53,301 nt of DNA. Origin: Alphaproteobacteria bacterium (GTDB lineage: Bacteria > Pseudomonadota > Alphaproteobacteria > JALCBB01). Location: NCBI GenBank assembly GCA_028066985.1, contig JALCBB010000001.1, forward strand, positions 1 to 53,301, given 5' to 3'. Below are positions 3,143-40,463 of the stretch, piece by piece. Position 1 is the stretch's first letter. Each line of letters begins with the position of its first letter. The notes under the pieces are model-generated. The model worked only from the letters and a program-made list of their open reading frames with translations, was not told the origin of the DNA and searched no databases. The position numbers and the translations under genes were made by a program.

Positions 3143-5416
3143 ATGCCGAACACGCCTTCGCCGTCTCCCGACTTTCTGCTCGGACGCGACCTCCTCTCGC
3201 ACACCGGCGCGATGCGGCGGCTGCACCGTCACCGCTCGTGCCAGAACTCCGGCGCCGACCCGATGGAGCGCAGAAATCTCAGAATCCTCGTCTGCCTCGT
3301 GCTCGTCTGCTGCGGCTTCGCGACCATCATCTTCAGACTCGGCGCCGTCATGGCTCCGTGGGACAACGACAGCGCGAAACTGCCGCACCCCATCCGCGCA
3401 ATCGCCGACGCCGCCGAAAAACCCGTCATCACCGACAGGCACGGCGAAATCCTCGCAATGGATCTGCCCGCGTATTCGCCGTACGCGCGTCCGAAGGAAA
3501 TGCGGAACCCGCGCCGCGCCGCGCGACTGCTCGCGTCGGCGATTGAGGACGCCAGTCCCGTTGAACTCGCCGCCGCGTTCCAGAACGCCGCCGACAACGA
3601 CGAGCCGTTCGTCTGGGTCGCGCGGTATATTTCGCCCCGCGAGGCGCGCGCCGTGATGAAGCGCGGCGTCGTCGGCGTGGAAATGATGGCGACGAAACGG
3701 CGCAGTCATCCGCTCGGAAGTCTCGCGTCGCATGTCACCGGCTTCACCGACATTGACGGCCGCGGCCTCGCCGGAATGGAACGGCTCGCGTCGGCGCGCG
3801 CGGAAGAGGGCAGGGGATCGGGTGAGGAGATCGCGCCTGTCGCGCTGTCGCTGGATCTGCGCGTTCAGCATGCGCTGGAGGAAGAACTTCACGCCACGAT
3901 GACGAAATTCCAGGGCAAGGGCGCCGCCGGCGTCGTGATGGACGCGAACAGCGGCGAAATTCTCGCTATCGCTTCGCTGCCGAATTTTCATCCCGACCGG
4001 CGCGAGATGCTTAACGAGGAAAATCGTTTTAATCGCGCCACGCTCGGCGTCTACGAGTTCGGCTCCGTTCTCAAGCCGCTCACCTACGCGACCGTGATGG
4101 AGGCGACGCCGCGCGGCGAGTGGAGCGCGCTCTTCGCTTCGCGTTATTCAACTTCGCCGATGCGGATTCCGGGATACACGATCACGGATTATCGTCCGAA
4201 ACATGCGAATGTGAAATTCGCGGAGGGGATGATTCATTCGTCCAATGTGACGACGGCGAAGGTGATGCGCCGCATCGGCGCGCCGTCGCTCAGGGACGGC
4301 TTCCACAGACTCGGCATGGCCGAAATCGCGCCGCTGGAACTCGGCGAGCGCGGACTGCCGCAGATGCCCGCGAAGTGGGGGCCGACTGAATCGGTCACGG
4401 CGTCTTACGGGCACGGGATCGCGGTGTCGCCTGTGCATATTGTTCGCGCCTTCGCGGCGGTCGTGAACGGCGGAGTGCTGCCGTCGCCGACATTGCTTAA
4501 GGGCGGCGCGGCGCCGGGCGCGCGGGTGCTGTCGGCGGAGACTTCGGCGGTGATGCGGCGTTTGTTGCGGCTCGTCGTGCTTGAGGGAACGGGGCGCAAG
4601 GCGGACGCGGACGGGTATCTTGTCGGCGGCAAGACGGGGACTGCCAATCAGGTTTCGCCGAGCGGCGGCTATGACGACAATCTTCGCATCGCGTCTTTTG
4701 TCGCGGCGTTTCCGATGGATGCGCCGCGGTATGTGACTTTTATGATGGTGGAGAATCCGGTGCCGAGCGAGGACAGTTTCGGTTTCGCGACGGGCGGCTG
4801 GGTCGCGGCGAGCGCGACGCGTCTGCTTGTGGCGCGGATCGCGCCGTTGCTTGGCGTGCTGCCGCGTGACAGCGAGGAGTTTGACACGGGCGCCCTTAAT
4901 TTTCTGAACACACCCGATGTTAACGCGGCACCCTTTGTCGTCGTCAACAATGAAACAACGGATTACAGCCCCGGCATCTTGTCTGTCGTCCACAACACCA
5001 TTGACAGCAATGACATTGACAATGAAGCGACCGACTACAAACCCGGCGCCTTGTCTGTCGTCCACAATAAAACAACGGACAACGAAACGGACACCTTGCA
5101 TGGTCGTCCGTCACCGTCGTTGTCTCTTAATAATTTTAATTTTTTGCGGGCAGCGCCCGCGGGCATCAGTGGGCGCGGTTCGCTTGAGCCAACAGCGCGC
5201 CAGTCCGAAAATCCTCTCCCACTAATGCCGAAGGCCGTCCAGGAGGATGCGATAACCGCCGACGCCTCGCCCGTCAATGAGTCCATTGACGCCATTGACG
5301 CGATCATCGCCGACACTTTAAGCGTCCAGCCCGTTGATGAAACCGTCATCCCCGCCGCCGATGAAACGCCCGCGGACATCACCTCGCTCATTCAACTCGT
5401 CCTCAGCGGAACCTGA
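3143..5416 (+). CDS. ftsI: Peptidoglycan D,D-transpeptidase FtsI (PBP3) with a repeat-containing C-terminal extension
   Basis: SxxK (GSVLKP), SxN (HSSNV) and KTG (GGKTGTA) motifs. Start uncertain (internal Met at MERRNLRILV possible). The last ~170 codons include a repeat insertion. Confidence 0.9.
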   Translation: MPNTPSPSPDFLLGRDLLSHTGAMRRLHRHRSCQNSGADPMERRNLRILVCLVLVCCGFATIIFRLGAVMAPWDNDSAKLPHPIRAIADAAEKPVITDRHGEILAMDLPAYSPYARPKEMRNPRRAARLLASAIEDASPVELAAAFQNAADNDEPFVWVARYISPREARAVMKRGVVGVEMMATKRRSHPLGSLASHVTGFTDIDGRGLAGMERLASARAEEGRGSGEEIAPVALSLDLRVQHALEEELHATMTKFQGKGAAGVVMDANSGEILAIASLPNFHPDRREMLNEENRFNRATLGVYEFGSVLKPLTYATVMEATPRGEWSALFASRYSTSPMRIPGYTITDYRPKHANVKFAEGMIHSSNVTTAKVMRRIGAPSLRDGFHRLGMAEIAPLELGERGLPQMPAKWGPTESVTASYGHGIAVSPVHIVRAFAAVVNGGVLPSPTLLKGGAAPGARVLSAETSAVMRRLLRLVVLEGTGRKADADGYLVGGKTGTANQVSPSGGYDDNLRIASFVAAFPMDAPRYVTFMMVENPVPSEDSFGFATGGWVAASATRLLVARIAPLLGVLPRDSEEFDTGALNFLNTPDVNAAPFVVVNNETTDYSPGILSVVHNTIDSNDIDNEATDYKPGALSVVHNKTTDNETDTLHGRPSPSLSLNNFNFLRAAPAGISGRGSLEPTARQSENPLPLMPKAVQEDAITADASPVNESIDAIDAIIADTLSVQPVDETVIPAADETPADITSLIQLVLSGT
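4925..5235 (+). repeat. Repeat element inserted in frame in the ftsI 3' region
   Basis: CCTTTGTCGTC leader; two copies of a ~69-bp direct repeat (CTTGTCTGTCGTCCACAA at 4978-4995 and 5050-5067); X hairpin 5087-5126; AT run; arm hairpin GCGGGCAGCGCCCGC 5146-5160; CCCACTAATGCC 5218-5229. Same layout as 12096-12412. Confidence 0.85.
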
Positions 5417-5422
5417 CACGCA

Positions 5423-7036
5423 ATGCGACTCCGCGAACTCCTCCCCCACACCATGCACACCCACAACCCCGACATCGCAGGACTCGCCGCTCACACCAGG
5501 GATGTCCAGCCGGGATTCATCTTCGCCGCGCTTCCGAACCTGCAGACAGATCACACAAACCCCGAACACATCAGCGAGGCTGTCAGACGCGGCGCCGTCG
5601 CCGTCATCGCCAGACCCGACGCGGGAGATCATGTCCGCGATGCCGTTCTCATTCCGCACGACAATCCCCGGAAACATCTCGCCGCGCTCGCCGCGCGTTT
5701 CCATTCGCCGCATCCGACGCACAAACTCGCCGTCACCGGAACCGACGGCAAGACCTCGGTCGCGGCGCTCGCGCAGAACCTGCTCGCCGACACGCTCGGC
5801 GCGTCCGTCGGATACATCGGGACGCTCGGCAACTCGCCGAAACTTGACTCGCCCGACTCGCCGCTCACCACGCCTGATCCTGTCACGCTTGCGCGGAAAC
5901 TCGCCGAGATGAAGCGCGGCGGTGTGGATCATGTTGTTCTTGAGGCGTCGTCGCACGGACTGCATCAGGAGCGGCTCAGCGGATTCAAGTTCAGCGCCGC
6001 GTGTTTCACGGGCATCGGACGCGACCACGGCGACTATCATCCGACTCCGGAGGAGTATCTGCTTGCGAAGTCGCGGCTCTTTACCGAACTGCTTGCGCCG
6101 GACGCGACCGCTGTCATTTGCGACGGATGCGACGGCGCCGCCAAAGTCGCCGCTCTCCTCTCCGCCGAAAGACCCGATGTGTCAATCGTCCGTTACCAGA
6201 CCAATAACGGCGACACCTTTATTGTCTCTGACGACAACAACGGCGGCGCCGTTAATGTCTCCACCGCACCCGACAACGGCGACACCGTTAATGTCCCCGT
6301 TAATGTTGGCGACACCTTTATTGTCCCCAATCAAATTAAAGAATTCCACCACACCCGCGACGGCGCATCCGTTGTTCTCCAGATCGGAAAACACACGCGC
6401 TCTGTTAATGTCCCCTTCTACGCGCGCTTTCAGGCGGAAAACCTTCTCGCCGCGCTTCTCTTGTCCTCCTGCGTCATCAACGACAGCGAGGCGACGCCGA
6501 AACTCATGCGCGCCGCCGAGTCCGTCAGCGCCATTCCCGGCAGACTGCAGCGCATCACGCCGCCGCCGTCACACAGGTTAAAGGACTGCGAATTCTTCGT
6601 TGACTTCGCGCACACGCCCGACGCTGTCGCCGGCGTCCTTCACGCGCTGCGCGAACGCCGCCGCGCGCTCAACACGCAGGGCAGACTGATTATCGTCCTC
6701 GGCGCCGGCGGAGACAGAGATCAGCACAAGCGCGCGCCAATGGGAAAAATCGCCGCGACACTCGCCGACACCGTCGTCATCACCGACGATAACCCGCGCG
6801 GCGAAAATCCCGCCGACATTCGCGCCGAAATTCTCAGAGGAACAGAACGCGAGAACGCCGCCGCCGTTAATGTCTCCCGCGGACGCGAAGCCGCCATTGA
6901 GTCCGCCGTCAGCGCGATGAAAGCCGGCGACACGCTCGTCGTCACCGGCAAAGGACACGAAACCACACAGCACATCAACGACTCCGAAATCCCGCTCTCG
7001 GACGCGGACACCCTCAACAACGCCCTCGCAAAATGA
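5423..7036 (+). CDS. murE: UDP-N-acetylmuramoyl-L-alanyl-D-glutamate--2,6-diaminopimelate ligase MurE
   Basis: Mur ligase P-loop VTGTDGKTS and MurE-type ITDDNPRGE motif; dcw position. Confidence 0.95.
   Translation: MRLRELLPHTMHTHNPDIAGLAAHTRDVQPGFIFAALPNLQTDHTNPEHISEAVRRGAVAVIARPDAGDHVRDAVLIPHDNPRKHLAALAARFHSPHPTHKLAVTGTDGKTSVAALAQNLLADTLGASVGYIGTLGNSPKLDSPDSPLTTPDPVTLARKLAEMKRGGVDHVVLEASSHGLHQERLSGFKFSAACFTGIGRDHGDYHPTPEEYLLAKSRLFTELLAPDATAVICDGCDGAAKVAALLSAERPDVSIVRYQTNNGDTFIVSDDNNGGAVNVSTAPDNGDTVNVPVNVGDTFIVPNQIKEFHHTRDGASVVLQIGKHTRSVNVPFYARFQAENLLAALLLSSCVINDSEATPKLMRAAESVSAIPGRLQRITPPPSHRLKDCEFFVDFAHTPDAVAGVLHALRERRRALNTQGRLIIVLGAGGDRDQHKRAPMGKIAATLADTVVITDDNPRGENPADIRAEILRGTERENAAAVNVSRGREAAIESAVSAMKAGDTLVVTGKGHETTQHINDSEIPLSDADTLNNALAK
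6195..6345 (+). repeat. Short interspersed repeats forming an in-frame insertion inside murE
   Basis: GGCGACACCTTTATTGTCYC at 6209-6228 and 6308-6328. GTTAATGTCYCC at about 6250, 6287, 6297 and again near 6404 and 6866. Translated as NNGDTFIVSDDNNGGAVNVSTAPDNGDTVNVPVNVGDTFIV. Confidence 0.7.
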
Positions 7037-10969: not shown

Positions 10970-12090
10970 TGCCGCACCGACTCATTCCGAAACGCGACAA
11001 CAGCGTCTTCTCGCAGTGGTGGTGGAGCGCCGACCTGCCCGTGCTTGCCGCGCTCGCCGCGCTCATCTTCTTCGGGATGCTCCTCTCGTTCAGCGCGACC
11101 CAGCCGCTCGCCGCCAGTCTCGGACAGCAGCACTACGCCCGCGCGATGCCGCATATGGCGTATGCGCTGGTCGCGCTCGCGCTGCTTGTCGCGGTGTCGT
11201 TTCTCAATGCTGACGCGGTTCGGCGCGCGGCGATTATCGCGTGCGCGGCGTGTGTCGTGCTGCTGGTCGCGACGCTTGTGATCGGCACCGAGATCAAGGG
11301 CGCGCGGCGGTGGCTTAATGTGTTCGGGTTTTCGGTGCAGCCGAGCGAGTTTGCGAAGCCGGCTTTCGCGGTCGCGGCGGCGTGGCTGCTGACGGCGGCG
11401 GGCGGGAGGTTTCGGCATCCGGCGTCGCTGGCGGCGTTCGGGCTTTGCGCGCTGCTTTGCGGCTTGCTGCTGCTTCAGCCGGACATCGGGCAGACGGTGA
11501 TTGTCATTTTTATTTTCGGCGCCGAATTTTTTGTCGCCGGGTTTTCGCCTTTTCTTGTGGCGGCGCTGGCTTTGCTTGGCGCGCTGATTTTGCTCGGCGC
11601 GTATCATCTTTTTCCGCATGTGGCGGAGCGGATTAATATTTTTCTGGACCCGGCGTCCGGCGACACTTATCAGGTGGAGCGTTCGCTTGAGGCGTTCGGC
11701 GCCGGCGGGTGGCGCGGTGTCGGGCTGCTGGACGGGCAGATCAAGCAGAAACTTCCGGACCGGCAGTCTGATTTTATTTTCGCTGTTATCGGCGAGGAGA
11801 TGGGTTTCGTTTTCGCGCTGCTTGTGGTTCTGACATTTATGTTTATCGCGGTGCGGGTGCTGTTGAAACTTTCGCGCGAGCCGCGGGCGTTCGCGGCTGT
11901 CGCGGGTGTGGGGCTGCTTACGCAGTTTATCGCGCAGACTTTTGTCAATGTCGGTTCAAGTTTGCAGATGATTCCGACGAAGGGGATGACGCTGCCGTTT
12001 TTGAGTCATGGCGGGTCTTCTTTGCTGGCGATGGGGCTTGGAATGGGCGCGCTCCTGGCACTCCTCAGAAGTCCACATATAACACGATGA
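10969..12090 (+). CDS. ftsW: Peptidoglycan glycosyltransferase FtsW (SEDS family)
   Basis: Refined start ATG 10969 (TGATG overlap with the murD stop). QPSEFAKP, PDRQSDFIF and GMTLPFLSHGGSS motifs. Confidence 0.93.
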   Translation: MPHRLIPKRDNSVFSQWWWSADLPVLAALAALIFFGMLLSFSATQPLAASLGQQHYARAMPHMAYALVALALLVAVSFLNADAVRRAAIIACAACVVLLVATLVIGTEIKGARRWLNVFGFSVQPSEFAKPAFAVAAAWLLTAAGGRFRHPASLAAFGLCALLCGLLLLQPDIGQTVIVIFIFGAEFFVAGFSPFLVAALALLGALILLGAYHLFPHVAERINIFLDPASGDTYQVERSLEAFGAGGWRGVGLLDGQIKQKLPDRQSDFIFAVIGEEMGFVFALLVVLTFMFIAVRVLLKLSREPRAFAAVAGVGLLTQFIAQTFVNVGSSLQMIPTKGMTLPFLSHGGSSLLAMGLGMGALLALLRSPHITR

Positions 12091-12416
12091 CAAACGACTC
12101 TCACACCGCCTTTGTCGTCAATGACACAGATGACACTTTGTCTGTCGTCAACCATGCTTTGACGACCGCGACAACTGCCCCCGCCTCTTTGTCTGTCGTC
12201 AATGCACACAATGACAACGACAATGACAATGGACACCTGCATTGTCGTCCATCACTGTCATTGTCCTTTTTTATTTTTTTGCAGGCAGCGCCTGCGGGCA
12301 TCAGCGGGTGCGGCTCGCTTGAGCCAACACCTTTGCCAGTCCAAGTCGCTCGCTCACTAATGCCAGAGGCGGTGCTTCGGGGGGGCGACTTGCATGGTCG
12401 TCCATTCACATCATGA
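12087..12416 (+). other. Repeat-derived bridging ORF (109 codons); coding status doubtful
   Basis: ATG 12087 overlaps the ftsW stop (ATGA) and the stop overlaps the murG ATG 12413 (ATGA). The arm is read in the same frame as in ftsI (FFIFLQAAPAGISGCGSLEPT). Confidence 0.25.
12096..12412 (+). repeat. Repeat element between ftsW and murG, flanked by the direct repeat ATGACAAA
   Basis: CCTTTGTCGTC leader, CTTTGTCTGTCGTCAA twice, X hairpin 12229-12266, T run, arm hairpin GCAGGCAGCGCCTGC 12281-12295, CTCACTAATGCC 12353-12364, terminal AGAGGCGGTGCTTCG, second X 12382-12410. ATGACAAA at 12087-12094 and 12413-12420. Confidence 0.85.
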
Positions 12417-15014: not shown

Positions 15015-16010
15015 ATGGCGCAGACAAAAACACCACCGCCGCGCCGCGCCGGAAGCCTCGCCGCCCGGCTTCGCGCCGCCGGCAGAAGTCTCGGCGACGA
15101 CTACATCCGCGGCAAGATCCAGGAAGAGGCGCCGCTCAACAGACACTCGTGGTTCCGCGTCGGCGGTCCCGCCGAAGTGCTCTTCTCGCCCGACGACAAG
15201 AAAGACCTCATCAACTTTCTCAAAATTCTGCCGCCCGAGACGCCGCTGACCGTGCTTGGTCTCGGCTCCAACATGCTGATTCGCGACGGCGGCGTGCGCG
15301 GCGCGGTCGTGCGGCTCTGGCGCGCGTTCGGCGCGACCAGATACTTTGAGGACGACAAAGAAATCTACGCCGAAGCCGCGGCGCCGTGTCCGCGGCTCGC
15401 GAAGTTCGCGTATGTGTCGGGTCTCGGAGGGCTTGAATTCTATCTCGGCATTCCCGGCACTGTCGGCGGCGCGATCGTGATGAACGCCGGCGCGTTCGGC
15501 GGCGAGACGAAGAAAGTCATCTCCAGGGCGTACGCGGTTCTGCGCAACGGCGACGAGTACGCGTTCACGCCGAAGACTCTTCACATGCGCTATCGCTACT
15601 CGCGGTTTCCGAAGGACGCGATCTTCATCGCCGCGAAGTTCAGCGTGAAGCCCGAGCGCAAGGGGATCATCAAAGATCGGATGGACAGCATCAGACAGCA
15701 GCGCGACCTCGCCCAGCCGACCGGCATCGCGACCGGCGGCAGCACTTTCAAGAATCCGCCGAAGCACAAGGCGTGGCGGCTCATTGAGGAGGCGGGCTGT
15801 CAGAATCTGCGTGTCGGCGCGGCGCGGGTGTCGGAGAAGCACTGCAACTTCCTGGTGAACGAGGGCGGCGCGACCGCGACCGACATTGAAGCGCTCGGCG
15901 AGGAAATTCGGCGCCGCGTCTTTGAGACATCGGGCAAAAATCTGGAATGGGAAATCCGTCGCATCGGACAGAGCAGCGCGACGGACGACTGGGAGGTGGG
16001 GCGTGGCTGA
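15015..16010 (+). CDS. murB: UDP-N-acetylenolpyruvoylglucosamine reductase MurB
   Basis: Refined start ATG 15015 (MAQTKTPPP). FAD-binding region NRHSWFRVGGPAEVLF, plus GLGSNML and GSTFKNP. Confidence 0.93.
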   Translation: MAQTKTPPPRRAGSLAARLRAAGRSLGDDYIRGKIQEEAPLNRHSWFRVGGPAEVLFSPDDKKDLINFLKILPPETPLTVLGLGSNMLIRDGGVRGAVVRLWRAFGATRYFEDDKEIYAEAAAPCPRLAKFAYVSGLGGLEFYLGIPGTVGGAIVMNAGAFGGETKKVISRAYAVLRNGDEYAFTPKTLHMRYRYSRFPKDAIFIAAKFSVKPERKGIIKDRMDSIRQQRDLAQPTGIATGGSTFKNPPKHKAWRLIEEAGCQNLRVGAARVSEKHCNFLVNEGGATATDIEALGEEIRRRVFETSGKNLEWEIRRIGQSSATDDWEVGRG

Positions 16011-17229
16011 GTCGCGGCGCGCGCTCGTGCTGTACGGCGGCGTTTCGCCGGAGCGCGAGGTGTCGCTTGTGTCGGGACGCGAGTGCGCCGCCGCGCTGAA
16101 GCGGCTCGGCTGGGAGGTCGCGTTGTATGACTGGCGCGGCGACGGCGATGACTTTCGCGCGCGCGCGGCGGGGGCGCGGTTTGTGTTTAACGCGCTGCAT
16201 GGCGGCGACGGCGAGAACGGCGATCTGGCGCGGCGGTTTGAAGATGTGCTGTTCACACATTCGCCGCCTGGGGCGTCGGCGCTGGCGATGGACAAGGTGC
16301 AGACGCGCGAGTTCGCGGTGAGCATTGGTTTGAGTGTGCCGCCCGGCGAGATTGCGACTTGCGCGGAGGTGCGGTCTGGTTTTGAGCCGTTTGCGCGTCC
16401 GTTTGTGGTGAAGCCGATCGCGGGGGGGTCAAGTATTGGTGTTTGCATTGTCGGCGGCGGGGGTGATGTGTCGGCGATGGAGTGTGGTGATGATGATGAT
16501 TTGCTTGTGGAGGTGTTTATTCCCGGGCGTGAGTTGACGGTTTCGGTTTTGGATGGTCGTGCGCTGGCGGTGACGGAGTTGCGGTCGCGGACGGCGTTTT
16601 ATGATTATGAGGCGAAGTATTCTTCGGGTGTGACGGAGCATCTTGTGCCGGCGCCGGTGCCGGAGGGTGTGTATCGCGCGGCGATGGAGGCGGCGGAGCG
16701 GATGCATGAGGTTTTGGGTTGTCGGGGTGTGTCGCGGAGTGATTTTCGCTGGGATGAGGGTGGTGTGGTTGATGGTGTGGTGTTGTATTTGCTGGAGGTG
16801 AATACGCAGCCTGGGATGACGCCGACGAGTCTGGTGCCGGAGCAGGCTTTGTTTTGCGGGATGGATTTTGACGCGCTTGTTGCGCGGATTGTTGATTCTG
16901 CCTTGTCCGCCAATTCGTCAAACAGCGACACAATGAAGGCGCCCCTTAAAAAGTCCAATGATGCGGACACATCAGGCGCGCCCGTTTCATTGTCTTCTCC
17001 TTCATCGTCCGTCACCGCTCCTGTTAAGGAGTGCGATGGGGACAATAAAGGGGGGCGAGTTTCATTGTCCTCTCTTTCATTGTCTGACAATTCGCTTGTT
17101 AAAAAGTCCGATATGGACAATAAAAGGGCGCGTTGTTCGTCGTCCTCTTCATTGTCTGTCAATTCGCCCGTTAAAAAGTCCAACGGGGACGCTTTAAGTG
17201 CGCCTTTTTCTGTCGGAGTTGCGTCGTGA
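16003..17229 (+). CDS. ddl: D-alanine--D-alanine ligase with a repeat-encoded C-terminal tail
   Basis: Refined start GTG 16003, overlapping the murB stop. LVLYGGVSPEREVSL and the ATP-grasp motif EVNTQPGMT. The canonical domain ends near ARIVDSAL (about 16905); about 100 further codons are tandem repeats. Confidence 0.9.
   Translation: MAESRRALVLYGGVSPEREVSLVSGRECAAALKRLGWEVALYDWRGDGDDFRARAAGARFVFNALHGGDGENGDLARRFEDVLFTHSPPGASALAMDKVQTREFAVSIGLSVPPGEIATCAEVRSGFEPFARPFVVKPIAGGSSIGVCIVGGGGDVSAMECGDDDDLLVEVFIPGRELTVSVLDGRALAVTELRSRTAFYDYEAKYSSGVTEHLVPAPVPEGVYRAAMEAAERMHEVLGCRGVSRSDFRWDEGGVVDGVVLYLLEVNTQPGMTPTSLVPEQALFCGMDFDALVARIVDSALSANSSNSDTMKAPLKKSNDADTSGAPVSLSSPSSSVTAPVKECDGDNKGGRVSLSSLSLSDNSLVKKSDMDNKRARCSSSSSLSVNSPVKKSNGDALSAPFSVGVAS
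16944..17200 (+). repeat. About 75-bp tandem repeat, roughly 3.4 copies, inside the ddl 3' end
   Basis: Units start near 16944, 17022, 17097 and 17170. Each carries GTTAAAAAGTCC...GGACAATAAA...TTTCATTGTCC with GGACAAT/ATTGTCC inverted repeats. A period of 25 codons keeps the frame. Confidence 0.8.
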
Positions 17230-21805: not shown

Positions 21806-22654
21806 ATGGACGCCCAGCCGCAGACCACCATCGCCGCGCCCGTCTCGTGGGAGGGCTACGGACTGCATCGCGGACGGCACGGTGTCGCGTCGGTGCTGCC
21901 CGCCGAGGAGAATGTCGGCTACAGAATTCGCAAGTCGGGCGGCGATCCGAAAGACGACATTAAAGTGTCTCCGCTCTATGCGGAGCCGTCGCCGTTGCAG
22001 ACGCAGTTGCGGCGCGGCGGACAGCGCGCGTATACGGTTGAACATTTGTTGTCGGCGTGTTACGGGCTGGGGCTGGACAATGTTGTGATTGAGTTGAGCG
22101 AGGAGGAGCCTCCGATACTTGACGGCAGCGCGTTTTTGTTCGCGCGCGACATTCATGCGGCGGGCGTGCGCGAGCAGGGGGCGCCGCGCCGGGTGCTGGA
22201 GGTTGCGGAGCCTTTTACGCACAGCGAGGGCGCGACGGAGATGCGTTTTCTGCCGTCGTCGGCGCTGGAGATTGTGGTGGAGATTGATTTTGAGGCTTTG
22301 GCTATCGGGTATCAGCGGCTGGAGATTTGTCTGACGCCGGAGCGGTATTTGCGCGAGGTCGCGCCGGCGCGGACTTTTCTGTTGCGGGAGGATTTGCCGT
22401 TTATGCGGCGGTATGGTCTGGGTCGCGGGGGGAATTTGAAGAACGCGATTATTGTGGATGGTGCGCGGGTGCATAGTCAGGAGCCGTTGCGGTTTGCGGA
22501 TGAGTTTGTGCGTCATAAGTTGCTGGATCTTGTGGGGGATCTGGCGTTATTGGGGGCGCCGTTGCGGGGCCGTGTGGAGGTTAACCGGCCTGGTCACAGT
22601 GTTACGATTAATGCGCTCCGCGAGTGGACAACGAAGCACCCCCTTCGGCATTAG
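21806..22654 (+). CDS. lpxC: UDP-3-O-acyl-N-acetylglucosamine deacetylase LpxC
   Basis: VEHLLSACYGLGLDN, PILDGSA and FVRHKLLDLVGDLAL motifs. The last ~9 codons and the TAG stop lie inside a repeat arm. Confidence 0.93.
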   Translation: MDAQPQTTIAAPVSWEGYGLHRGRHGVASVLPAEENVGYRIRKSGGDPKDDIKVSPLYAEPSPLQTQLRRGGQRAYTVEHLLSACYGLGLDNVVIELSEEEPPILDGSAFLFARDIHAAGVREQGAPRRVLEVAEPFTHSEGATEMRFLPSSALEIVVEIDFEALAIGYQRLEICLTPERYLREVAPARTFLLREDLPFMRRYGLGRGGNLKNAIIVDGARVHSQEPLRFADEFVRHKLLDLVGDLALLGAPLRGRVEVNRPGHSVTINALREWTTKHPLRH

Positions 22655-22775
22655 TGGGAGTCTGACTTAGACAGTCACGATAGCCGCTCAAGCGAACCGC
22701 GCCCGCTGATGCCCGCAGGCGCTGCCCGCAGAAAAATTAAAATTTAATTTGACTATTATATATAAGGGGCTGACT
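22626..22775 (-). repeat. Solo arm plus partial AT core, overlapping the lpxC 3' end
   Basis: GGACAACGAAGCAC terminus at 22626, GGCATTAGTGGG 22647-22658, GACTTAGACAGTCACGAT, GCTCAAGCGA, CCCGCTGATGCC 22702-22713, hairpin 22715-22729, then a degenerate core (TTGACTATTATATATAAGGGG). Confidence 0.85.
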
Positions 22776-26044: not shown

Positions 26045-27259
26045 ATGAAAAAGATTTCGGTCAAAGGCTCCGTGGTTGAGTTGGACGGCGACGAGATGAC
26101 GCGCGTCATCTGGCGCGAAATCCGCGAGAAGTTGATCCTGCCGTTTCTGGATGTGGACCTGGTGTATTTTGATCTGGGTCTGCCTTCGCGCGACAAGACC
26201 TCCGACAAGGTGACGCTGGACGCGGCGGCGGCGATACGCGAGCATCGCGTGGGCGTGAAGTGCGCGACGATCACGCCGAACGCCGAGCGTGTTGAAGAGT
26301 TCGGACTCAAGGAGATGTGGCGCTCGCCGAACGGCACGATCCGCAATTATCTGAACGGCACGGTGTTTCGGGAGGCGATTATCTGTCGGAATGTGCCGCG
26401 TCTTGTTCCGAACTGGACGCGTCCGATTATTGTGGCGCGTCATGCGTATGGCGATCAGTATCGCGCGACGGACATGCGGATCGCGGGGCGCGGTGTTTTG
26501 TCTATGCGCTTTGAGCCTGAGAACGGCGGCGAGGCGACGGAGATGGTGGTGCGCGAGTTTCCCGGAGGCGGCGTGGCGCTGTCTATGTTCAACGAGGACG
26601 AGTCTATGGAGGGCTTTGCGCGCGCGTGTTTCAGTTATGCGCTGGAGCGGGGTGTGGATGTGTATTTTTCCACGAAGGACACGATTTTGAAGGTTTATGA
26701 CGGACATTTCCGCGACTGTTTTCAGGCGGTGTTTGACGGCGAGTTCGCGGAGTTGTTTCGGGAGCGCGGGTTGAAGTACGAGCATCGTCTGATTGACGAC
26801 ATGGTTGCGTCCGCGTTGAAGTGGTCTGGCGGTTATTTGTGGGCGTGCAAGAATTATGATGGAGATGTGCAGTCTGACATGATTGCGCAGGGTTTCGGTT
26901 CTTTGGGTCTGATGACATCGGTTTTGCTGACGCCGGACGGACGGGTTGTTGAGGCGGAGGCGGCGCATGGCACGGTGACGCGGCATTTTCGGATGCATGA
27001 GCGCGGCGAGGCGACGAGCACGAATCCGATGGCGACGATTTTCGCGTGGACGCGGGCGTTGGGGTGGCGCGGACGGTTTGACGGCACTCCGGAGGTTGTG
27101 GAGTTTGCGGGGAAGTTGGAGGGTGTGTGTGTGGGCGCGATAGAGTCCGGGAAGATGACGAAGGATCTGGCTTTGCTGGTGGGTCCTGAGCAGGGCTGGA
27201 TGGAGACCTTCGCGTATCTGGACTACCTTGCCGAGCGTTTAAGCGAAGCCCTTAATTAA
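26045..27259 (+). CDS. icd: NADP-dependent isocitrate dehydrogenase (404-aa homodimeric, eukaryote-like subtype)
   Basis: N-terminus MKKISVKGSVVELDGDEMTRVIWREIREKLILPFLDVDL plus NYDGDVQSD and GTVTRH motifs. Confidence 0.95.
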   Translation: MKKISVKGSVVELDGDEMTRVIWREIREKLILPFLDVDLVYFDLGLPSRDKTSDKVTLDAAAAIREHRVGVKCATITPNAERVEEFGLKEMWRSPNGTIRNYLNGTVFREAIICRNVPRLVPNWTRPIIVARHAYGDQYRATDMRIAGRGVLSMRFEPENGGEATEMVVREFPGGGVALSMFNEDESMEGFARACFSYALERGVDVYFSTKDTILKVYDGHFRDCFQAVFDGEFAELFRERGLKYEHRLIDDMVASALKWSGGYLWACKNYDGDVQSDMIAQGFGSLGLMTSVLLTPDGRVVEAEAAHGTVTRHFRMHERGEATSTNPMATIFAWTRALGWRGRFDGTPEVVEFAGKLEGVCVGAIESGKMTKDLALLVGPEQGWMETFAYLDYLAERLSEALN

Positions 27260-27597
27260 AGGGACAAGCGAAGTGCGACCTTTGGCATTAGTGGGCGTTT
27301 GACTAAGACATTCACGATGTCGGCTCAAGCGAAAACACGCCAACTAATGGGTGCGGGCTAGCCCGCAAAAAAATAAATAATAATTTATTGACTATTTAAG
27401 GGGTCAATTAAATAAATTGCTTTCTTATTAATTGACAAATAATGGAATGGTTATTGTCTATTAAATTAATTCTTTTAATTTTATTTTTTTGCAGGCAGCG
27501 CCTGCGGGCATCAGCGGGTATCGCTCGCTTGAGCCGACATCGTGACTAGTCTTAGTCACACGCCCACTAATGCCAAGGATCAGTCTTCGGAGTCGTC
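27260..27597. mobile_element. Composite mosaic palindromic element (MITE-like), between convergent icd and the RND permease
   Basis: Left arm: AGGGACAAGCGAAG, GGCATTAGTGGG 27284-27295, GACTAAGACATTCACGATG, GCTCAAGCGA, hairpin GCGGGCTAGCCCGC 27353-27366. AT core 27367-27490. Right arm: hairpin GCAGGCAGCGCCTGC 27491-27505, GCTTGAGCC, CCCACTAATGCC 27563-27574. Confidence 0.7.
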
Positions 27598-30500
27598 GTC
27601 TTCACGACGGGCGCCGAAAAGACGGGAAAGTAAGGAGCGGCGGGGGCGGGACTCCTCCGATGTCGGCGGGTCGTCTGAGCCAGCCCAACTGAACTCTCCG
27701 CCAGACACAGACACCGATACAGCCTCAGCCGCAACTCCAGCCAAAACACCGCGAGAAGTCGCCTCCAAAACAGCCAGCCGGCGTCCCTCCTTCTTGCTCC
27801 GACGGCGGCGGGCGCGCTCCTCCATGCGTCCCTTGTAAACCAAAGCCGACGGCGTCACCAGCAAAGTCAAAGGCGTCGCGAAGAACAAGCCGAACACAAT
27901 CACCGTGGATAACTGCACCCACCACAACGCGCTCGGCGAATTGTAGGTCACCGTCCGCTCAATGAAGTCAAAGTTCAACTTCAGCACCAGCGGCATCAAA
28001 CCCAGAATCGTCGTGCAAGCCGTCAGCAACACAGGACGCATGCGCTGCGCCCCCGTTCGCAAAATTGCCTCCGTCACATCCAGACCCGAACGCCGCAAAC
28101 CCTCATAGGTGTCAATCAACACAATGTTGTTGTTCACAATAATCCCCGCCAGCGCAATCACACCAATCCCGCACATCACAATCCCGAACGGCTGCCCCGT
28201 TATCAGCAGTCCAAGCATCACACCCGTCGTCGACATGATCACCGCCGACAATATCAATAACGCCGAGAAAAACGAGTTGAACTGCGTCACCAGAATCACA
28301 GCCATCAACGCCATCGCCACCATGAAGGCGCGCACCAGAAACGCCTGCGCCTCCATCTCCTCCACATTCTCGCCCACAAACTCATAACGAACACTCGGAT
28401 CCAGGTCCGCCTCGGCAAGCAAAGCCTCAAGTTCCGCCTGCTTCGCCGACACCAGAAATTCACGACCCGTCGCCGGATCTATGCCGACATTCGCCTCCAC
28501 CGTCACCACACGGCGCTGATCCACACGGCTGAAGACCGTGTCCGCGGGCTTCGTCTCCAGATCCACAAACGACGAAATCGGCACCAGGCCGCTGCGCGTC
28601 TGAATCCGCAACTGCTGCAACTGCGAAGTGTTGCGATAGTCAAGCGGCACGCGCGCGATGATGTCCACCTCCTCGGTCGTGTGATCCGGACGGTAACTCG
28701 CCAGTTTCAAACCGCCCGTGAACATCTCCACATAGTTCCCCACCAGCGACAAATTCGCGCCGAAACGCTCGGCCGCCGTCCGATCGACGATGAGTTCAAC
28801 ACCGAGTTCGGGCGGAGGCAGCGAGTCCTCAATGTCAACCACGCCGCCGGCGCTCTCCATCAGCGCGCGCACCCGCGCCGCCGTCGCCGGCAGAATCTCG
28901 GGCGAATTAGAAGTCAGACGCACCACAAGCGGCTTGCCCTCGCCGCCGGGACCCTCTTCGTCGGCCTGCGGCTCAATGACAATCCCCGCGAGATGCAGGG
29001 TGCGCTCGCGTATCTCTTCCAGAATCACCGTCGCCGGACGGCGCAGGTTGCTGTCCACGAGTTCAATCGTGATGTTGCCGATGATGTCGCTGTCGCTCTG
29101 TCCGGACACCTGACTCACCGTATACACCGACCCCATCTCGCCGTTCTCAATCGCGAGTTTCAGAATTTCAGCCTCGGCTTCGCGCACGAGATGATCGCGC
29201 TCCACCGCCGAAAAATTGCCCTGCGCGCGCACATGAATCACCGCCTGATCCGGCTCGGTCGCCGGGAAAAACTCCGTGCCCTGTCCGGAACGGCTGTAGG
29301 CGAAGAACGAACCCACCAGCACCGCCGCCGCCGCCAGCACCACAAGCGACGGAAAGCGTATCAGTCGCCGCAAAAGACGAATATACGCGCCCGTGAAGCC
29401 CTTCACCGCGTTCAGGTCGCCGCCGCGAGCGATCGCGCGCGCCGTCTTCACGCTCTCGTCCGTGCGCGCCTTGCCGAAAATGGAGCCTATCGTCGGCAGG
29501 AAAATTAGCGCCATGAACAGCGCCGCCGTAAGCACGATGATCTGCGTTATCGGCAGGAACTTCATAAACTCGCCCACCGTGCCGGGCCAGAACGCCAGCG
29601 GCAGAAACGCGCACAGGGTCGTCGCCGTGGACGAGGTGATCGGCCAGAACATTCGGTGCGACGCCTCGCGGAACGCCTCCTCGGCGGTCTTGCCCTCGGA
29701 CATCTTGCGGTCGGCGAACTCGGTCATCACGATGGAGCCGTCAACGAGGAGTCCGACCGACAAAATCAGCGCGAAGAGAACCACGATGTTAAGCGTGAAG
29801 CCGATGCTGCTGATCACCATGAACGCCACGAGCAGCGACGCCGGAATCGCGAAGCCGACCAGCAGCGCCGTGCGGAGTCCGATGGTGGCGATGAGAACAG
29901 TGACCACGAGCAGAATAGATGTCACGACCGAATTGCCGAGGTCGCTGATGATGCGGCGGATGTCGACGGACTCGTCGCCGCTGAAGGCGTAGGTCACGCC
30001 GGGGGGCCACTTTTTGCTCTCCTCTTCAACGACGATCTTCGCCTGGTCGATGGTTTCAATGATGTTCGTGCCGATGCGCTTCGTGATCTCAACGGAGACG
30101 CTGTTCTGTCCGTTGACGCGGACGAAGGAGTCCGGCTCGCGGAAGGTCGGGCGCACGATGGCGATGTCGCCGACGGTGACTTCTCTGTCGCCGTTGACGC
30201 GCAGGGGCAGGTCGATGATTTCTTCGTAGGAGCGGTAGAGACCCGGCACGCGGACGGCGAAGCGTCCGGCGCCTGTATCCAGGGTGCCGGCGGTGATGAC
30301 CTGGTTGTTGCTTGCGACCGCGGCGAGGACGGTGTCGGCTTCAAGTCCGTAGGACTCGAGTTTGACGGGGTCAATGATGACTTCGACCTGTTCGGGCAGG
30401 GTGCCGAAGACATCCGCGGTCAGGACGTTGGTGAGCGACTCCAGCGAGTCGGAGAGGTCTACCGCGACCTGGCGGATCACGCGTTCGGGCAGGCTGCTGG

Positions 30501-30933
30501 ACAGCGTGACGGTGATGATCGGAAACAGCGAGAGGTTGACTTCGCTGACGGTGGGTTCGTCGGCGTCGGCGGGGAGGTCGACGGCGACTTCGTCGCTGGC
30601 GACGCGGACGTCGTCCAGGGCGGTGTCAATGCTGTATCCGGCGGCGAATTCCAGTTGAACGAAGCCGCCGCCGGAGTATGCGGCGGAGGTCATTTCAATG
30701 ACGCCTTCCACGGCGCGCATTTTATTTTCCATGGGGCGGACGAGGAGTCGTTCGGAGTCTTCGGGCGAGATGCCGCGCTGGCTCATGCTGATGTAGAGGA
30801 TGGGGATCTGGACGTCGGGCTCGGACTCTCTGGGGATGGAGAGCATGGAGAGGTATCCGGAGATGAGGAAGATGAAGAGCAGCCCGAGGGTGGAGCGCTT
30901 GCGGAGGAGGGCGGCGTCAATGAGGTGGCTCAT
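27580..30933 (-). CDS. Efflux RND transporter permease subunit (AcrB/HAE1-like)
   Basis: 1117 aa, 12-TM RND architecture with two large periplasmic loops. The low-complexity C-terminal tail has its last codons and stop inside the element end. Confidence 0.95.
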   Translation of the reverse strand: MSHLIDAALLRKRSTLGLLFIFLISGYLSMLSIPRESEPDVQIPILYISMSQRGISPEDSERLLVRPMENKMRAVEGVIEMTSAAYSGGGFVQLEFAAGYSIDTALDDVRVASDEVAVDLPADADEPTVSEVNLSLFPIITVTLSSSLPERVIRQVAVDLSDSLESLTNVLTADVFGTLPEQVEVIIDPVKLESYGLEADTVLAAVASNNQVITAGTLDTGAGRFAVRVPGLYRSYEEIIDLPLRVNGDREVTVGDIAIVRPTFREPDSFVRVNGQNSVSVEITKRIGTNIIETIDQAKIVVEEESKKWPPGVTYAFSGDESVDIRRIISDLGNSVVTSILLVVTVLIATIGLRTALLVGFAIPASLLVAFMVISSIGFTLNIVVLFALILSVGLLVDGSIVMTEFADRKMSEGKTAEEAFREASHRMFWPITSSTATTLCAFLPLAFWPGTVGEFMKFLPITQIIVLTAALFMALIFLPTIGSIFGKARTDESVKTARAIARGGDLNAVKGFTGAYIRLLRRLIRFPSLVVLAAAAVLVGSFFAYSRSGQGTEFFPATEPDQAVIHVRAQGNFSAVERDHLVREAEAEILKLAIENGEMGSVYTVSQVSGQSDSDIIGNITIELVDSNLRRPATVILEEIRERTLHLAGIVIEPQADEEGPGGEGKPLVVRLTSNSPEILPATAARVRALMESAGGVVDIEDSLPPPELGVELIVDRTAAERFGANLSLVGNYVEMFTGGLKLASYRPDHTTEEVDIIARVPLDYRNTSQLQQLRIQTRSGLVPISSFVDLETKPADTVFSRVDQRRVVTVEANVGIDPATGREFLVSAKQAELEALLAEADLDPSVRYEFVGENVEEMEAQAFLVRAFMVAMALMAVILVTQFNSFFSALLILSAVIMSTTGVMLGLLITGQPFGIVMCGIGVIALAGIIVNNNIVLIDTYEGLRRSGLDVTEAILRTGAQRMRPVLLTACTTILGLMPLVLKLNFDFIERTVTYNSPSALWWVQLSTVIVFGLFFATPLTLLVTPSALVYKGRMEERARRRRSKKEGRRLAVLEATSRGVLAGVAAEAVSVSVSGGEFSWAGSDDPPTSEESRPRRSLLSRLFGARREDDDSED

Positions 30934-30951
30934 GGCGCGACCTTTCCGAGT

Positions 30952-31228
30952 CCGGTGGGAGCAGCCCCTGGCATTAGCGGGCGAGGAATCCAGGCTTGCC
31001 GTGACGGCCGCTCAAGCGAGCGACGCCCGCTGATGCCCGCGGGCGCTGCCCGCAAAAAATTAAATTTTAATGGACAGACGATGAATGGACGAACCGTCGG
31101 GCGGCTGTCTGTCCATTTATTTTTTTTGTCGGCAGCGCCGACAGGCGACAGTGGGTGCGGCTCGCTTGAGCCGACGCCGTTAACAGTCAATGACACCCCG
31201 CCCACTAATGCCAAGGGCGGTGCCATGG
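30952..31228. mobile_element. Composite palindromic element with a variant core, intercistronic in the RND operon
   Basis: GGCATTAGCGGG 30970-30981, CCCGCTGATGCC 31026-31037, hairpin GCGGGCGCTGCCCGC 31039-31053. The core holds a 9-bp stem TGGACAGAC 31071-31079 / GTCTGTCCA 31107-31115. Second hairpin GTCGGCAGCGCCGAC 31128-31142; CCCACTAATGCC 31201-31212. Confidence 0.7.
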
Positions 31229-31272
31229 AAAGTCCAAAGGCGGCACTGACGAATGACAGAAACTTGCCCATA

Positions 31273-32394
31273 TCAGCCGCCGTCCACAACCGCGTCAACC
31301 TCCTCCTGCGTCACCACCTTCACCAACTGACCATCCTGTATCCACGACTGACCCACCGTCACCACACGCAACTCCCCAGGCATACCGCTCACCCACGCGC
31401 CCCCCGCATCCTGATCCACAATCTCAATAGAATGAAACCGCGCAGTGTCACTGTCATCCACCCCGTACACGCCCAGCACGCCGGAGTCGTTCAACACAAT
31501 GATCCCCGGCGAAATCCGATGCAACGCGCGCGGCTCCTGACGCAACAACACCCGCGCCGTCGCCCCCGCAGGATACACACCATCCGGATTCGCAGCCTCC
31601 GCCTCTATCCGAAATGTCCGCGTCGCCGGATCCGCAATCCGCGAAATGAAACTCACCTCGCCCGTCACCACACCGCCGAAAACAAGTTCCGCCTCCACCC
31701 GATCACCAAGCCGCACCTGCCCGAGTTCATCCTCGCTGACAGAGAAGGTCAATTTCAACGGGTCAAGGTCAAGCAGCCGCGCAACCTCGCTGCCCGGCGA
31801 AACATAGTCGCCCACCTCAACCAGCACATCCTCCAGCACCGCGCCGAACGGAGCGTCAATCACCAGCCGCCGCAACTCCAAAGTCGCGCGCTCCAACTGC
31901 GCGCGCGCGCTCGCCAATGTCGCCGTCGCCGCGTTCAACTGCATCTCCGAACGCAAACCCTCGTCGTACAGACGCCGCGTCGCCTTGAAATCACTCTCGG
32001 CCTGATCCAACTGCGCGCGCGCGTCCGCCAGTGTCGCCGGACGATCCTGCTCGGTGAGCCGAAGCAAAGCCGTCCCGCCGGCGACAGCGTCGCCCGCCTC
32101 AACAAGTATCTCCTCAACGCGTCCGCTGATCTCGCTCTGCAGACGAAGGTCGCGGCGCGCCTCGGTGCGTCCGGCAACCTCAAGCACGCCGACATGCGGA
32201 CGCGCCGTCAGCGTCTCAACACGCACCTCAAGGGCGGTGACCTCGGCGTCCTGAATGACGACAGGGGCGACCTGCGGCGTGACAGGCTGTCCCTGCCGCG
32301 CGACGGTGCCGGAGTATATCCAGAGTCCCGCAGCGGCAATCACCGCAACCGCTATCGTGCGCGGACTCTTCACAAACGCCACTAGAAATCTCAC
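31273..32394 (-). CDS. Efflux RND transporter periplasmic adaptor subunit (MFP/HlyD family)
   Basis: 373 aa with an N-terminal anchor, coiled-coil hairpin and beta-barrel regions; immediately upstream of the RND permease on the same strand. Confidence 0.9.
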   Translation of the reverse strand: MRFLVAFVKSPRTIAVAVIAAAGLWIYSGTVARQGQPVTPQVAPVVIQDAEVTALEVRVETLTARPHVGVLEVAGRTEARRDLRLQSEISGRVEEILVEAGDAVAGGTALLRLTEQDRPATLADARAQLDQAESDFKATRRLYDEGLRSEMQLNAATATLASARAQLERATLELRRLVIDAPFGAVLEDVLVEVGDYVSPGSEVARLLDLDPLKLTFSVSEDELGQVRLGDRVEAELVFGGVVTGEVSFISRIADPATRTFRIEAEAANPDGVYPAGATARVLLRQEPRALHRISPGIIVLNDSGVLGVYGVDDSDTARFHSIEIVDQDAGGAWVSGMPGELRVVTVGQSWIQDGQLVKVVTQEEVDAVVDGG

Positions 32395-34751: not shown

Positions 34752-35025
34752 CTCCCCCGACGACCAGCCCTTGGCATTAGTGGGCGTTTGACTTAGACAG
34801 TCACGATGTTCGCTCAAGCGAGCCGCACCCACTGATGCCCGCAGGCGCTGCCTGCAAAAAAATAAATTAAAGATTAAATGGACTATTTAAGGGGTCAATT
34901 AAATAAATTGTTTTTTTATTTTTTAATTTTTTGCGGGCTAGCCCGCACCCATCTGCTGGCATCGTTCGCTTGAGCGGCTGTTGTGAATGTCTTAGTCAAA
35001 GTCTTACTAATGCCAAAGGCTGTTT
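34752..35025. mobile_element. Composite mosaic palindromic element (short core), between convergent msrP and hemB
   Basis: GGCATTAGTGGG 34773-34784, CCCACTGATGCC 34828-34839, hairpin GCAGGCGCTGCCTGC 34841-34855, core 34856-34932, hairpin GCGGGCTAGCCCGC 34933-34946, CTTACTAATGCC 35003-35014. Confidence 0.7.
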
Positions 35026-36509: not shown

Positions 36510-36840
36510 AAGACAGACGAAGTGCCACATTCGGCATTAGTGGGCGTCTGACTAAGACAGTCACGATGTTTGCTCAAGCGAGCCGCACCCACTGATGCCC
36601 GCAGGCGCTGCCTGCAAAAAAATAAAATTAAAAAGAAATTAATTTATTTAATAGACACCATTAATTGTCTATTAATGAAAAGGCAATTGATTTAATTGAC
36701 CCCTTAAATAGTCAATAAATTATTATTTATTTTTTGCGGGCTAGCCCGCACCCGTCTGCTGGCATCGTTCGCTTGAGCCGACACCTTAAGAGTCTAAAAT
36801 TCTCGCCCACTAATGCCAGAAGCCGCACTTCGCCTGTCTC
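36510..36840. mobile_element. Composite mosaic palindromic element (archetype), between convergent moaE and ychF
   Basis: Terminal inverted repeats AAGACAGACGAAGTGCC... / ...GCACTTCGCCTGTCTC. GGCATTAGTGGG 36533-36544, CCCACTGATGCC 36588-36599, hairpin 36601-36615, AT core 36616-36735, hairpin GCGGGCTAGCCCGC 36736-36749, CCCACTAATGCC 36806-36817. TAATTAA on both flanks. Confidence 0.75.
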
Positions 36841-40414: not shown

Positions 40415-40454
40415 AGAGACAGACGAAGAGCCGCCCTTGGCATTAGTGGGCGCC
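40415..40454. repeat. Isolated element terminus fragment
   Basis: AGAGACAGACGAAGAGCCGCCCTTGGCATTAGTGGGCGCC is the outer ~40 nt of an arm, followed by TTAATTAA (40456-40463) and then a full element. Confidence 0.6.
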
Positions 40455-40463
40455 TTTAATTAA

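Follow-up and report, generated by a model that had tools for sequence, protein, structure and literature searches.

A hairpin-rich family repeat in frame within the C-terminal tail of FtsI in an uncultured alphaproteobacterium

FtsI is normally essential for cell division and is a target of beta-lactams. In the 53,301-nucleotide stretch of DNA analysed here (contig JALCBB010000001.1 of assembly GCA_028066985.1 from an uncultured alphaproteobacterium, positions 1 to 53,301; hereafter the window), the ftsI reading frame runs, after the transpeptidase domain, through a repeat that recurs elsewhere in the same DNA. The presence of a family repeat of about 310 bp in frame in the C-terminal tail of FtsI, proposed in a preliminary description made from the letters alone, was borne out by the open reading frame (ORF), by a hidden Markov model (HMM) of the repeat arm, by three assemblies and by comparison with a repeat-free orthologue. 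The best explanation of these data, held with high confidence, is an in-frame insertion of a non-autonomous family repeat into a pre-existing FtsI tail, where it would be translated as a disordered linker.

The insert within the ftsI reading frame

The ORF at 3143-5416 (+) encodes without interruption a class B penicillin-binding protein (PBP) of 757 amino acids (aa), in which Pfam places PBP_dimer (PF03717) at residues 95-202 and Transpeptidase (PF00905) at residues 263-540. The catalytic motifs SxxK (S308/K311), SSN (S366-S367-N368) and KTG (K497-T498-G499) are invariant in the orthologue alignment, and the gene is flanked by ftsL and murE in a division and cell wall (dcw) cluster ordered mraZ-rsmH-ftsL-ftsI-murE-murF-mraY-murD-ftsW-murG-murC. 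Judged by its domains, its SxxK/SxN/KTG motifs and its ftsL-murE position, the product is FtsI/PBP3. The frame reads ...LLGVLPR...NAAPFVVVNNETT...LHGRPSPSLSLNNFNFLRAAPAGISGRGSLEPT...SLIQLVLSGT*, with 183 codons after LLGVLPR. From the insert to the TGA stop at 5414-5416 there are 60 codons, the figure given earlier as approximate, and murE starts at 5423.

Orthologues distinguish an insertion from an ancestral tail. Typical FtsI proteins have 572-590 aa and end about 25 residues past LLGxxP, and a longer tail is found in the clade of the window, namely in P0002 (GCA_052851145.1; 693 aa, 66% identical and without the insert) and in P0003 and P0004 (43-45% identical, about 795 aa). Outside this clade the best FtsI matches are 43-49% identical, the named ones belonging to Kiloniellales, Dongiaceae, Fodinicurvata and Rhodovibrionaceae. 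When the tails of the window protein and P0002 were compared by BLASTP, only the first 22 residues, to ...NAAP (P597, nt 4933), and the last nine aligned, the alignment resuming at ISSLIRLVL (terminal ITSLIxLVL motif). The alignment of orthologues recommended in the preliminary description thus locates the insertion point, and the result feared there, a repeat-free orthologue sharing the tail, did not materialise: P0002 has only the flanking 22 residues and the terminal motif. No arm-like peptide is present in P0002, and no arm was detected in the 10.6-kb P0002 contig or in 22 kb around the P0004 ftsI. The native proximal tail (DSEEFDTGALNFLNTPDVNAA, 4865-4930, +) corresponds to residues 1-22 after LLGVLPR, and the native distal tail (5246-5413, +), delimited by alignment, BLASTP and AlphaFold2, comprises two predicted helices (residues 711-727 and 745-756) and a terminal motif conserved in the clade, ADITSLIQLVLSGT in the window, DSISSLIRLVLREGT in P0002, DSVAFLVQQILYGSTP in P0003 and conserved also in P0004. 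Since the flanks are shared and both arm peptide and arm are lacking in P0002, the element would have reached an already existing, rapidly evolving linker once the P0002 lineage had split off; on alignment grounds the insert is read as an insertion into an existing tail and not as part of an ancestral one. The preserved motif points to a functional C-terminal FtsI motif in this clade, whose linker can apparently take about 100 extra residues while the short terminal helix stays. In P0003 and P0004 (including L007 10001-12388), low-complexity expansions were observed at the cytoplasmic N-terminus (SQGASQGIS-type) and in the C-terminal tail, the terminal FLVQQILYG motif being retained despite them, and in this clade expansion seems to be tolerated at both ends of FtsI.

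The insert spans 4931-5245 (+), that is 315 nt or 105 codons (residues 597-701), is absent from P0002, is present in the sister-strain contigs L002 and L004 and is homologous to the other copies; the span first given, 4925-5235, holds as to presence, but these boundaries, each uncertain by about 6 nt, are the best ones. The modules listed earlier (leader, direct repeats, X hairpin, AT run, arm hairpin and CCCACTAATGCC) were all recovered in that order. The leader motif CCTTTGTCGTC (TTGTCGTC leader) at 4932-4942 (+) is, by alignment, the same that starts the insert between ftsW and murG. It is followed at 4947-5067 (+) by two direct repeats (4947-4995 and 5019-5067), each ending in CTTGTCTGTCGTCCACAA and 84% identical, with a period of 72 nt (24 codons) instead of the 69 bp originally estimated, and by a third, partial copy at 5057-5098. 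The X hairpin GGACAACGAAACGGACACCTTGCATGGTCGTCCGTCACCGTCGTTGTCT at about 5077-5125 (+), delimited by a minimum free energy fold, has homologous modules at 1594-1640 and 12228-12268. The arm model begins at the AT run TTAATAATTTTAATTTTTT (5127-5145, +), translated NNFNFL, after which come arm hairpin 1 (GCGGGCAGCGCCCGC, GCGGGC-AGC-GCCCGC; 5146-5160, +), supported by an RNAalifold analysis of 22 arms, and a 68-nt arm stem-loop (5162-5229, +) made of GGCATCAGTGGG, TCGCTTGAGCC (5180-5190), a variable loop and CCCACTAATGCC; a 12-bp stem, in which GGCATCAGTGGG (5162-5173) pairs with CCCACTAATGCC (5218-5229), closes the arm. The arm HMM matches 5128-5237 with E = 8e-31 (nhmmer). The AT run and hairpin are translated as NNFNFLRAAPAGISGRGSLEPT, exactly as had been read, and the loop variant of this arm is stop-free in the ftsI frame, versus stops in 16 of the 21 arms analysed. 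A search of 4880-5260 revealed no inverted-repeat pair; the insert as a whole is not one palindrome and has a single arm. Calling it complete is consequently apt relative to the other copies of the dcw cluster but not to the canonical two-arm pair of 258-304 bp. Likewise, the claimed common build with the ftsW/murG insert, whose module order is the same, holds for that order but not for the spacing, the two TTGTCTGTCGTC motifs lying about 51-62 nt apart there, nor for the 72-nt unit, of which the rest of the window holds no close copy. An assignment of the 72-nt repeats to the native tail, considered on account of VDAAVDAIVDAIVD in P0002, was rejected because TTGTC(TG)TCGTC recurs upstream of arms in the ftsW/murG insert and in L006 7778-8000; the P0002 repeat VDAAVDAIVDAIVD resembles instead the post-insert ESIDAIDAIIAD of the window.

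Maintenance of the frame was assessed in three independent assemblies, the window, L004 (GCA_028067335.1) and L002 (GCA_028067395.1), all of which have the insert in frame. Over ftsI, L004 differs from the window by 56 substitutions and no indel, and L002 by indels of +3 nt and +12 nt, the latter a slippage duplication in the direct-repeat region, and by a replaced patch at 4943-4977, all of them frame-preserving. A frameshift or assembly artefact, named in the preliminary description as a possible refutation, is ruled out by this conservation. By codon position, the substitutions relative to L004 are [5,0,31] in the core, [1,2,6] in the insert and [2,2,7] in the distal tail, and those of the distal tail relative to L002 are [2,2,6]; the pattern is thus that of coding sequence in the distal tail and of coding sequence under weak constraint in the insert. 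Frame conservation together with the conserved terminal motif implies that read-through of the insert is under selection, and from these comparisons the insert is likely to be translated and to be neutral or nearly so.

AlphaFold2, run with a 63-sequence alignment, gave a predicted local distance difference test (pLDDT) score above 90 in the catalytic core and of 25-39 for residues 595-712, almost exactly the insert, helices 711-727 and 745-756 being of low-to-moderate confidence. The low scores indicate that the 105 extra residues lengthen a disordered periplasmic linker, and the added part is, in this model, probably unstructured. The preferred sequence of events would then be as follows. 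A mosaic repeat, non-autonomous and rich in hairpins, from a lineage-specific family assembled from arm, X hairpin and TTGTCGTC modules, would have inserted in the 3' part of ftsI, landing in the poorly conserved periplasmic tail that joins the transpeptidase domain to the short conserved C-terminal helix, and would possibly have been enlarged later by a 72-nt in-frame duplication. Its 315 nt without a stop in the ftsI frame would add about 105 disordered linker residues, with the C-terminal motif still made. No special mechanism would be required, as only in-frame, stop-free insertions in a tolerant linker would survive among random insertions into ftsI; when the insert is shuffled by dinucleotides, 8% of the shuffles leave the required frame without a stop, so that a rare neutral survivor is a sufficient explanation.

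Several observations weigh against this explanation. The likeness of the left 115 nt (4931-5045) to other copies is at motif level only (TTGTCTGTCGTC), and this left part may be partly a post-insertion 72-nt in-frame duplication and not original element. The flanks GATGTTAAC (left) and GATGCGATAAC (right) are too weak for a target-site duplication to be called around the insert. Purifying selection on the insert is weak, with 6 of the 9 differences from L004 at third positions (binomial p about 0.04, own calculation), and relative to L002 there are many non-synonymous changes in addition to the replaced patch. Finally, the repeat survey covered these 53 kb of the genome and about 30 kb from sister metagenome-assembled genomes (MAGs).

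The repeat family

With up to one mismatch allowed, GGCATTAGTGGG occurs 31 times in 53 kb versus 0.11 expected, and the repeat family is far above chance expectation. An iterated nhmmer model of the approximately 105-nt arm recovered 23 arms and two fragments in the window, each arm built of a T run, a hairpin GCRGGC-NNN-GCCYGC, GGCATCAGTGGG, TCGCTTGAGCC, a variable loop and CCCACTAATGCC. Of these arms, sixteen are joined two by two, in inverted orientation, across an AT-rich core, giving the eight canonical palindromic elements of 258-304 bp (27276-27579, 30962-31220, 34765-35022, 36526-36825, 40478-40779, 42234-42536, 47342-47599 and 49768-50070), in which two arm variants are found (GCRGGCAGCGCCYGC with GGGCATCAGTGGG and GCGGGCTAGCCCGC with ACCCATCTGCTGG) and whose outer ends read RGRGACARRCGAAG, i.e. 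...TTAATTAA-RGRGACARRCGAAGYGC. A canonical member of the family is thus an intergenic palindrome resembling a miniature inverted-repeat transposable element (MITE), placed directly after or overlapping stop codons. The ftsI copy and those at 1469-1816 and 12087-12416, on the other hand, carry a single arm after the X hairpin and TTGTC(TG)TCGTC motifs, and the GC content of such X-type inserts is 0.54-0.60, versus 0.42-0.45 in the canonical copies. Intragenic copies account for one or two of about 16 loci, only the ftsI copy being internal to a coding sequence and the ddl extension being C-terminal; all other loci in the 53 kb are intergenic or clip gene ends.

At the structural level, RNAalifold of the 22 arms shows compensatory changes in hairpin 1, with both sides changed in 10 arms at columns 21/31 and in two arms at columns 20/32, the changing pair taking GC, AU and CG forms among copies. 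The 12-nt arm stem has a consistent C/T asymmetry by which a G-U pair can form on one strand only.

As for the distribution of the family, Rfam returned only a tRNA at the gathering threshold in the window and nothing at E <= 1 over 4800-5450, Pfam and NCBIfam at E <= 10 gave no match for the FtsI tail or the bridging ORFs described below, blastn of the insert against PLSDB plasmids gave none, and the best-conserved 25-mer had no match in Joint Genome Institute (JGI) metagenome contigs. Among 5.8 billion proteins, a profile of the arm peptide matched six small hypothetical ORFs of sister MAGs but no further large protein, with a sensitivity limited to the point that the sister-strain FtsI P0001, carrying the same peptide, was missed. 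A Pseudomonas stretch, among the matches listed for the pattern GGCATTAGTGGGN{20,45}CTCAAGCGA in genome contigs, was discarded as a family member because 596 Gb should contain about 7 matches by chance (own estimate); against the arm model it gave E = 0.0035 in a single-locus search and no match with all loci together. The family, which is previously undescribed and absent from Rfam, Pfam and NCBIfam, appears limited to a few sister MAGs bearing the label 'Alphaproteobacteria bacterium'.

Some copies touch the ends of neighbouring genes. The stop codon of LpxC (21806-22654), TAG at 22652-22654, lies within the arm motif GGCATTAGTGGG of the element 22640-22745 (-), so that the repeat provides the stop of the gene and roughly its last ten codons. 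A gene of the isocitrate/isopropylmalate dehydrogenase family (26045-27259) terminates in the element end TTAATTAA, and the end of a resistance-nodulation-division (RND) pump gene (27580-30933, -) directly abuts the arm 27475-27579.

Repeats inside operons and alternative readings

Four inserts lie inside operons or coding sequences, at mraZ|rsmH (1473-1812), in ftsI (4931-5245), at ftsW|murG (12091-12412) and between the genes of a membrane-fusion protein and an RND pump (30934-31272). All four have 0 stops in the required sense frame, with an average of about 4 in the other frames, and the joint probability of four open required frames under dinucleotide shuffling is about 2e-4. The three inserts between genes form bridging ORFs (1469-1816, +; 12087-12416, +; 30930-31298, -), each of which ends in an ATGA overlap with the start of the downstream gene, and in the first two the start likewise overlaps the upstream stop in ATGA. 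The mraZ|rsmH and ftsW|murG inserts are flanked by ATGAC(AAA) on both sides, with ATGACAAA on both sides at ftsW/murG, and the element-free relative L007 has 4-nt stop/start overlaps at these junctions (ATGAC at mraZ/rsmH, GTGA at ftsW/murG). Insertion into the overlap with target duplication is what this arrangement suggests for the two loci. As stated in the preliminary description, the frame of the ftsI peptide is that of ORFs 1469-1816, 12087-12416 and 44-250, an agreement partly forced by stops in the other arm frames, +2 having a conserved TGA in CTTGAGCC and +1 a stop in each of the three dcw arms. This frame is free of stops in five of 21 full arms (1642+, 5128+, 12269+, 31069- and 31115+), exactly those within transcription units, and holds 1-5 stops in the other 16.

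A further stretch of repeats within a reading frame is found in Ddl (16009-17229, +), in which the Pfam domain ends at residue 295 of 406 and a C-terminal extension of about 105 aa follows, ordinary Ddl proteins having 303-310 aa. The extension consists of three tandem units of 72-75 nt (16992-17210), in which TCATCGTCCGTCACCG of the X hairpin recurs, and its end overlaps ftsQ in GTGA; in the Ddl of the sister strain P0127 the extension is present with a different repeat content. The element between ftsW and murG shows 0 differences in 238 nt between L004 10001-10238 and window 12087-12324, its flanking genes differing by 1.5-3%. This identity could result from constraint, gene conversion or a contig-end assembly artefact, and, as the repeat is cut by the end of the L004 contig, no conclusion of constraint was drawn from it.

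Explanations other than a translated, nearly neutral insertion were weighed against these data. If FtsI ended near the end of its transpeptidase domain, the remainder of the ORF would be a sequencing or assembly error or a spurious open frame of GC-rich DNA; long spurious ORFs are indeed common in such DNA, the frame 4917-5225 and antisense ORFs are also open here, and typical FtsI proteins have the short length given above. This reading is already contradicted by the present data and has next to no probability left: the three assemblies agree with indels in multiples of 3, no in-frame stop occurs before 5414, substitutions downstream of the insert are biased to third positions, and the SLIxLVLxGT terminal motif is conserved at the protein level in the insert-free P0002 with synonymous differences in the DNA. 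It is also conceivable, though improbable, that the insert acts as nucleic acid, as an element of mRNA processing or stability or as an internal site regulating the mur genes downstream, its translation being incidental. The ftsI region yields strong local hairpins on folding (-101 kcal/mol, z = -2.2), hairpin 1 has compensatory changes across copies, the stem asymmetry allows G-U pairing on one strand only, and effects on how stable the flanking mRNA is are known for REP, Correia and ERIC elements (PMC2229807). However, a scan of 4700-5600 revealed neither a sigma-70-like promoter nor an intrinsic terminator, Rfam gave no match even at E = 1, and the T run comes before the hairpin in the sense orientation, so that it cannot serve as an intrinsic terminator. 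Moreover, the wobble-compatible strand is antisense in ftsI, and conservation of the palindrome is equally expected from a DNA-level mobility signal. Intron and intein signals were likewise sought in domain and Rfam searches with no match, and both candidates were rejected for want of such support.

A broader proposal concerns the translatability of the family, or of its GC-richer X-type subfamily, within transcription units, the ftsI copy being an instance of a general rule by which ribosomes are kept on the mRNA, translational coupling is preserved and Rho-dependent polarity is avoided. In favour of such a rule, the four intra-operon inserts are stop-free in exactly the frame linking the upstream stop to the downstream start, at the low joint shuffle probability given above, and the three intergenic ones form ORFs ending in an ATGA overlap. 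Furthermore, seven full elements outside operons, all canonical, have 3-13 stops in every frame (the eighth, 30962-31220, lies within the open insert between the membrane-fusion protein and RND pump genes), the repeat-built extension of Ddl runs to its GTGA overlap with ftsQ, and the element-free L007 has 4-nt overlaps at both mraZ/rsmH and ftsW/murG. On the other side, the open frame in ftsI is already explained by the need for the C-terminal motif, and the five open arms are also open on the antisense strand and the inserts are GC-richer, which makes the effect partly one of composition or subfamily and not of frame-specific selection. In addition, an element between hppD and hgmA (L005) stops 50 nt before hgmA, and the elements 22640-22745 and 40431-40779, although between co-directional genes, are not open. 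Selection for translatability inside operons is regarded as a serious hypothesis, but as rather less likely than not. An equally tentative extension is that intra-operon copies of a mosaic family are maintained as translated sequence, either as bridging ORFs (insertion into ATGA overlaps, duplication of ATGAC and new ATGA coupling) or as in-frame linkers and extensions (FtsI, Ddl). If this were true, selection against untranslated gaps, through loss of coupling and Rho polarity, would decide which repeat insertions survive in operons, and repeats would continually supply essential cell-wall genes with new peptide sequence. The pattern of intra-operon openness offers in any case a testable hypothesis on the tolerance of operons to repeat invasion, and the small 'hypothetical proteins' annotated between dcw genes in these MAGs should be treated with caution, being repeat-derived.

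Relation to known repeats

Protein-coding insertion of a non-autonomous palindromic repeat is an already known phenomenon, the family here being undescribed and the target gene notable. The closest precedent in behaviour is that of the Rickettsia palindromic elements (RPEs) RPE-1 to RPE-10 (Ogata et al. 2000, 2002; summarised in PMC10969869 and PMC2229807), as the preliminary description had remarked; the resemblance holds for behaviour, but analysis does not support membership. Like the RPEs, the present elements are short, repeated, hairpin-forming and non-autonomous in an alphaproteobacterial host, one copy lies in frame inside a conserved housekeeping gene with its ORF intact (105 codons without a stop in three strains), and the encoded peptide is outside the folded core, with the insert at the same site in close relatives. 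The pentamer ATGAC is reported to characterise RPE-4, -6 and -7 of Rickettsia as well as the Wolbachia palindromic elements (PMC3767692), and its enrichment in two inserts here, being that of a 5-mer, is a lead only. In the X-type inserts 1469-1816 and 12087-12416 ATGAC is found (both strands) at 14-18 per kb versus 2.4 per kb in the window; the enrichment also concerns L006 7778-8130, and the pentamer is absent from the canonical elements.

The differences from RPEs are several. No sequence or profile match was obtained in NCBIfam, Pfam or Rfam, a result bounded by the unconfirmed presence of RPE models in NCBIfam and obtained with no direct comparison of consensus sequences. The host here has about 60% GC (60.5% in the window) and an FtsI closest to those of the Rhodospirillales/Kiloniellales type, not of Rickettsiales, and the insert is a mosaic of 315 nt compared with 100-150 nt for RPEs. 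RPEs fold as a long stem-loop closed by terminal inverted repeats (TIRs); here an approximately 105-nt arm closed by a 12-bp stem occurs 23 times, and the whole insert is not one palindrome. Nearly half of the counted R. conorii RPE copies, mostly of RPE-1 to -3, lie in ORFs (PMC10969869, PMC3767692), whereas such a large intragenic share is not seen among the roughly 16 loci here, and the canonical copies have stops in all six frames.

In-frame fusions to conserved genes, with neutral or mild effects, are described both for RPEs and for ORF-carrying MITEs (ERIC, the 107-bp Correia element and YPAL; PMC2229807, PMC10969869). With the MITEs known for ORF fusions (ERIC/IRU, 107-bp Correia, YPAL/RU-2) the canonical copies share long TIRs, AT-rich flanks TTAATTAA and the lack of a transposase, the element ORFs having no match among the protein families of Pfam and NCBIfam. 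They also overlap the 3' ends of genes and can supply stop codons. Moreover, the Correia element of 107 bp is open and intragenic and that of 155 bp is full of stops and intergenic (Delihas 2007/2008, PMC2229807), a parallel to the X-type and AT-core types of the window, which likewise differ in coding capacity and location. The ftsI copy, on the other hand, is single-armed and has no TIR pair, TIRs being confined to the eight canonical copies; the TIR arms are about 105-130 nt versus the 4-24 bp listed for the ERIC, Correia and YPAL families, and the comparison of sequences showed no relationship.

REP units are 20-40 bp, extragenic and linked to RAYT transposases (PMC3733652). The mosaic combination of a small set of short hairpin modules that vary in order, number and orientation, mostly extragenic and just past stop codons, recalls the bacterial interspersed mosaic elements (BIMEs), but the arm unit of about 105 nt is three times the length of a REP and one copy is intragenic, so that the family is not placed with REPs or BIMEs. 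BIMEs are not known to reside in frame in genes. In-frame selfish palindromic repeats are best known from Rickettsia, with scattered enteric cases, and the present one is found in an unrelated, GC-rich uncultured alphaproteobacterium.

Two observations on the sister MAGs are added. In L002 (3609-4700; GCA_028067395.1), murE is present as two ORFs of 229 and 101 aa, compared with a single ORF of 537 aa in the window and in L004, and the split may reflect an assembly error or a pseudogene. A gene for a type III secretion needle protein (PF09392, L006 8201-8452) lies on a sister-MAG contig that also holds the repeat family, a hint that the lineage may be host-associated.

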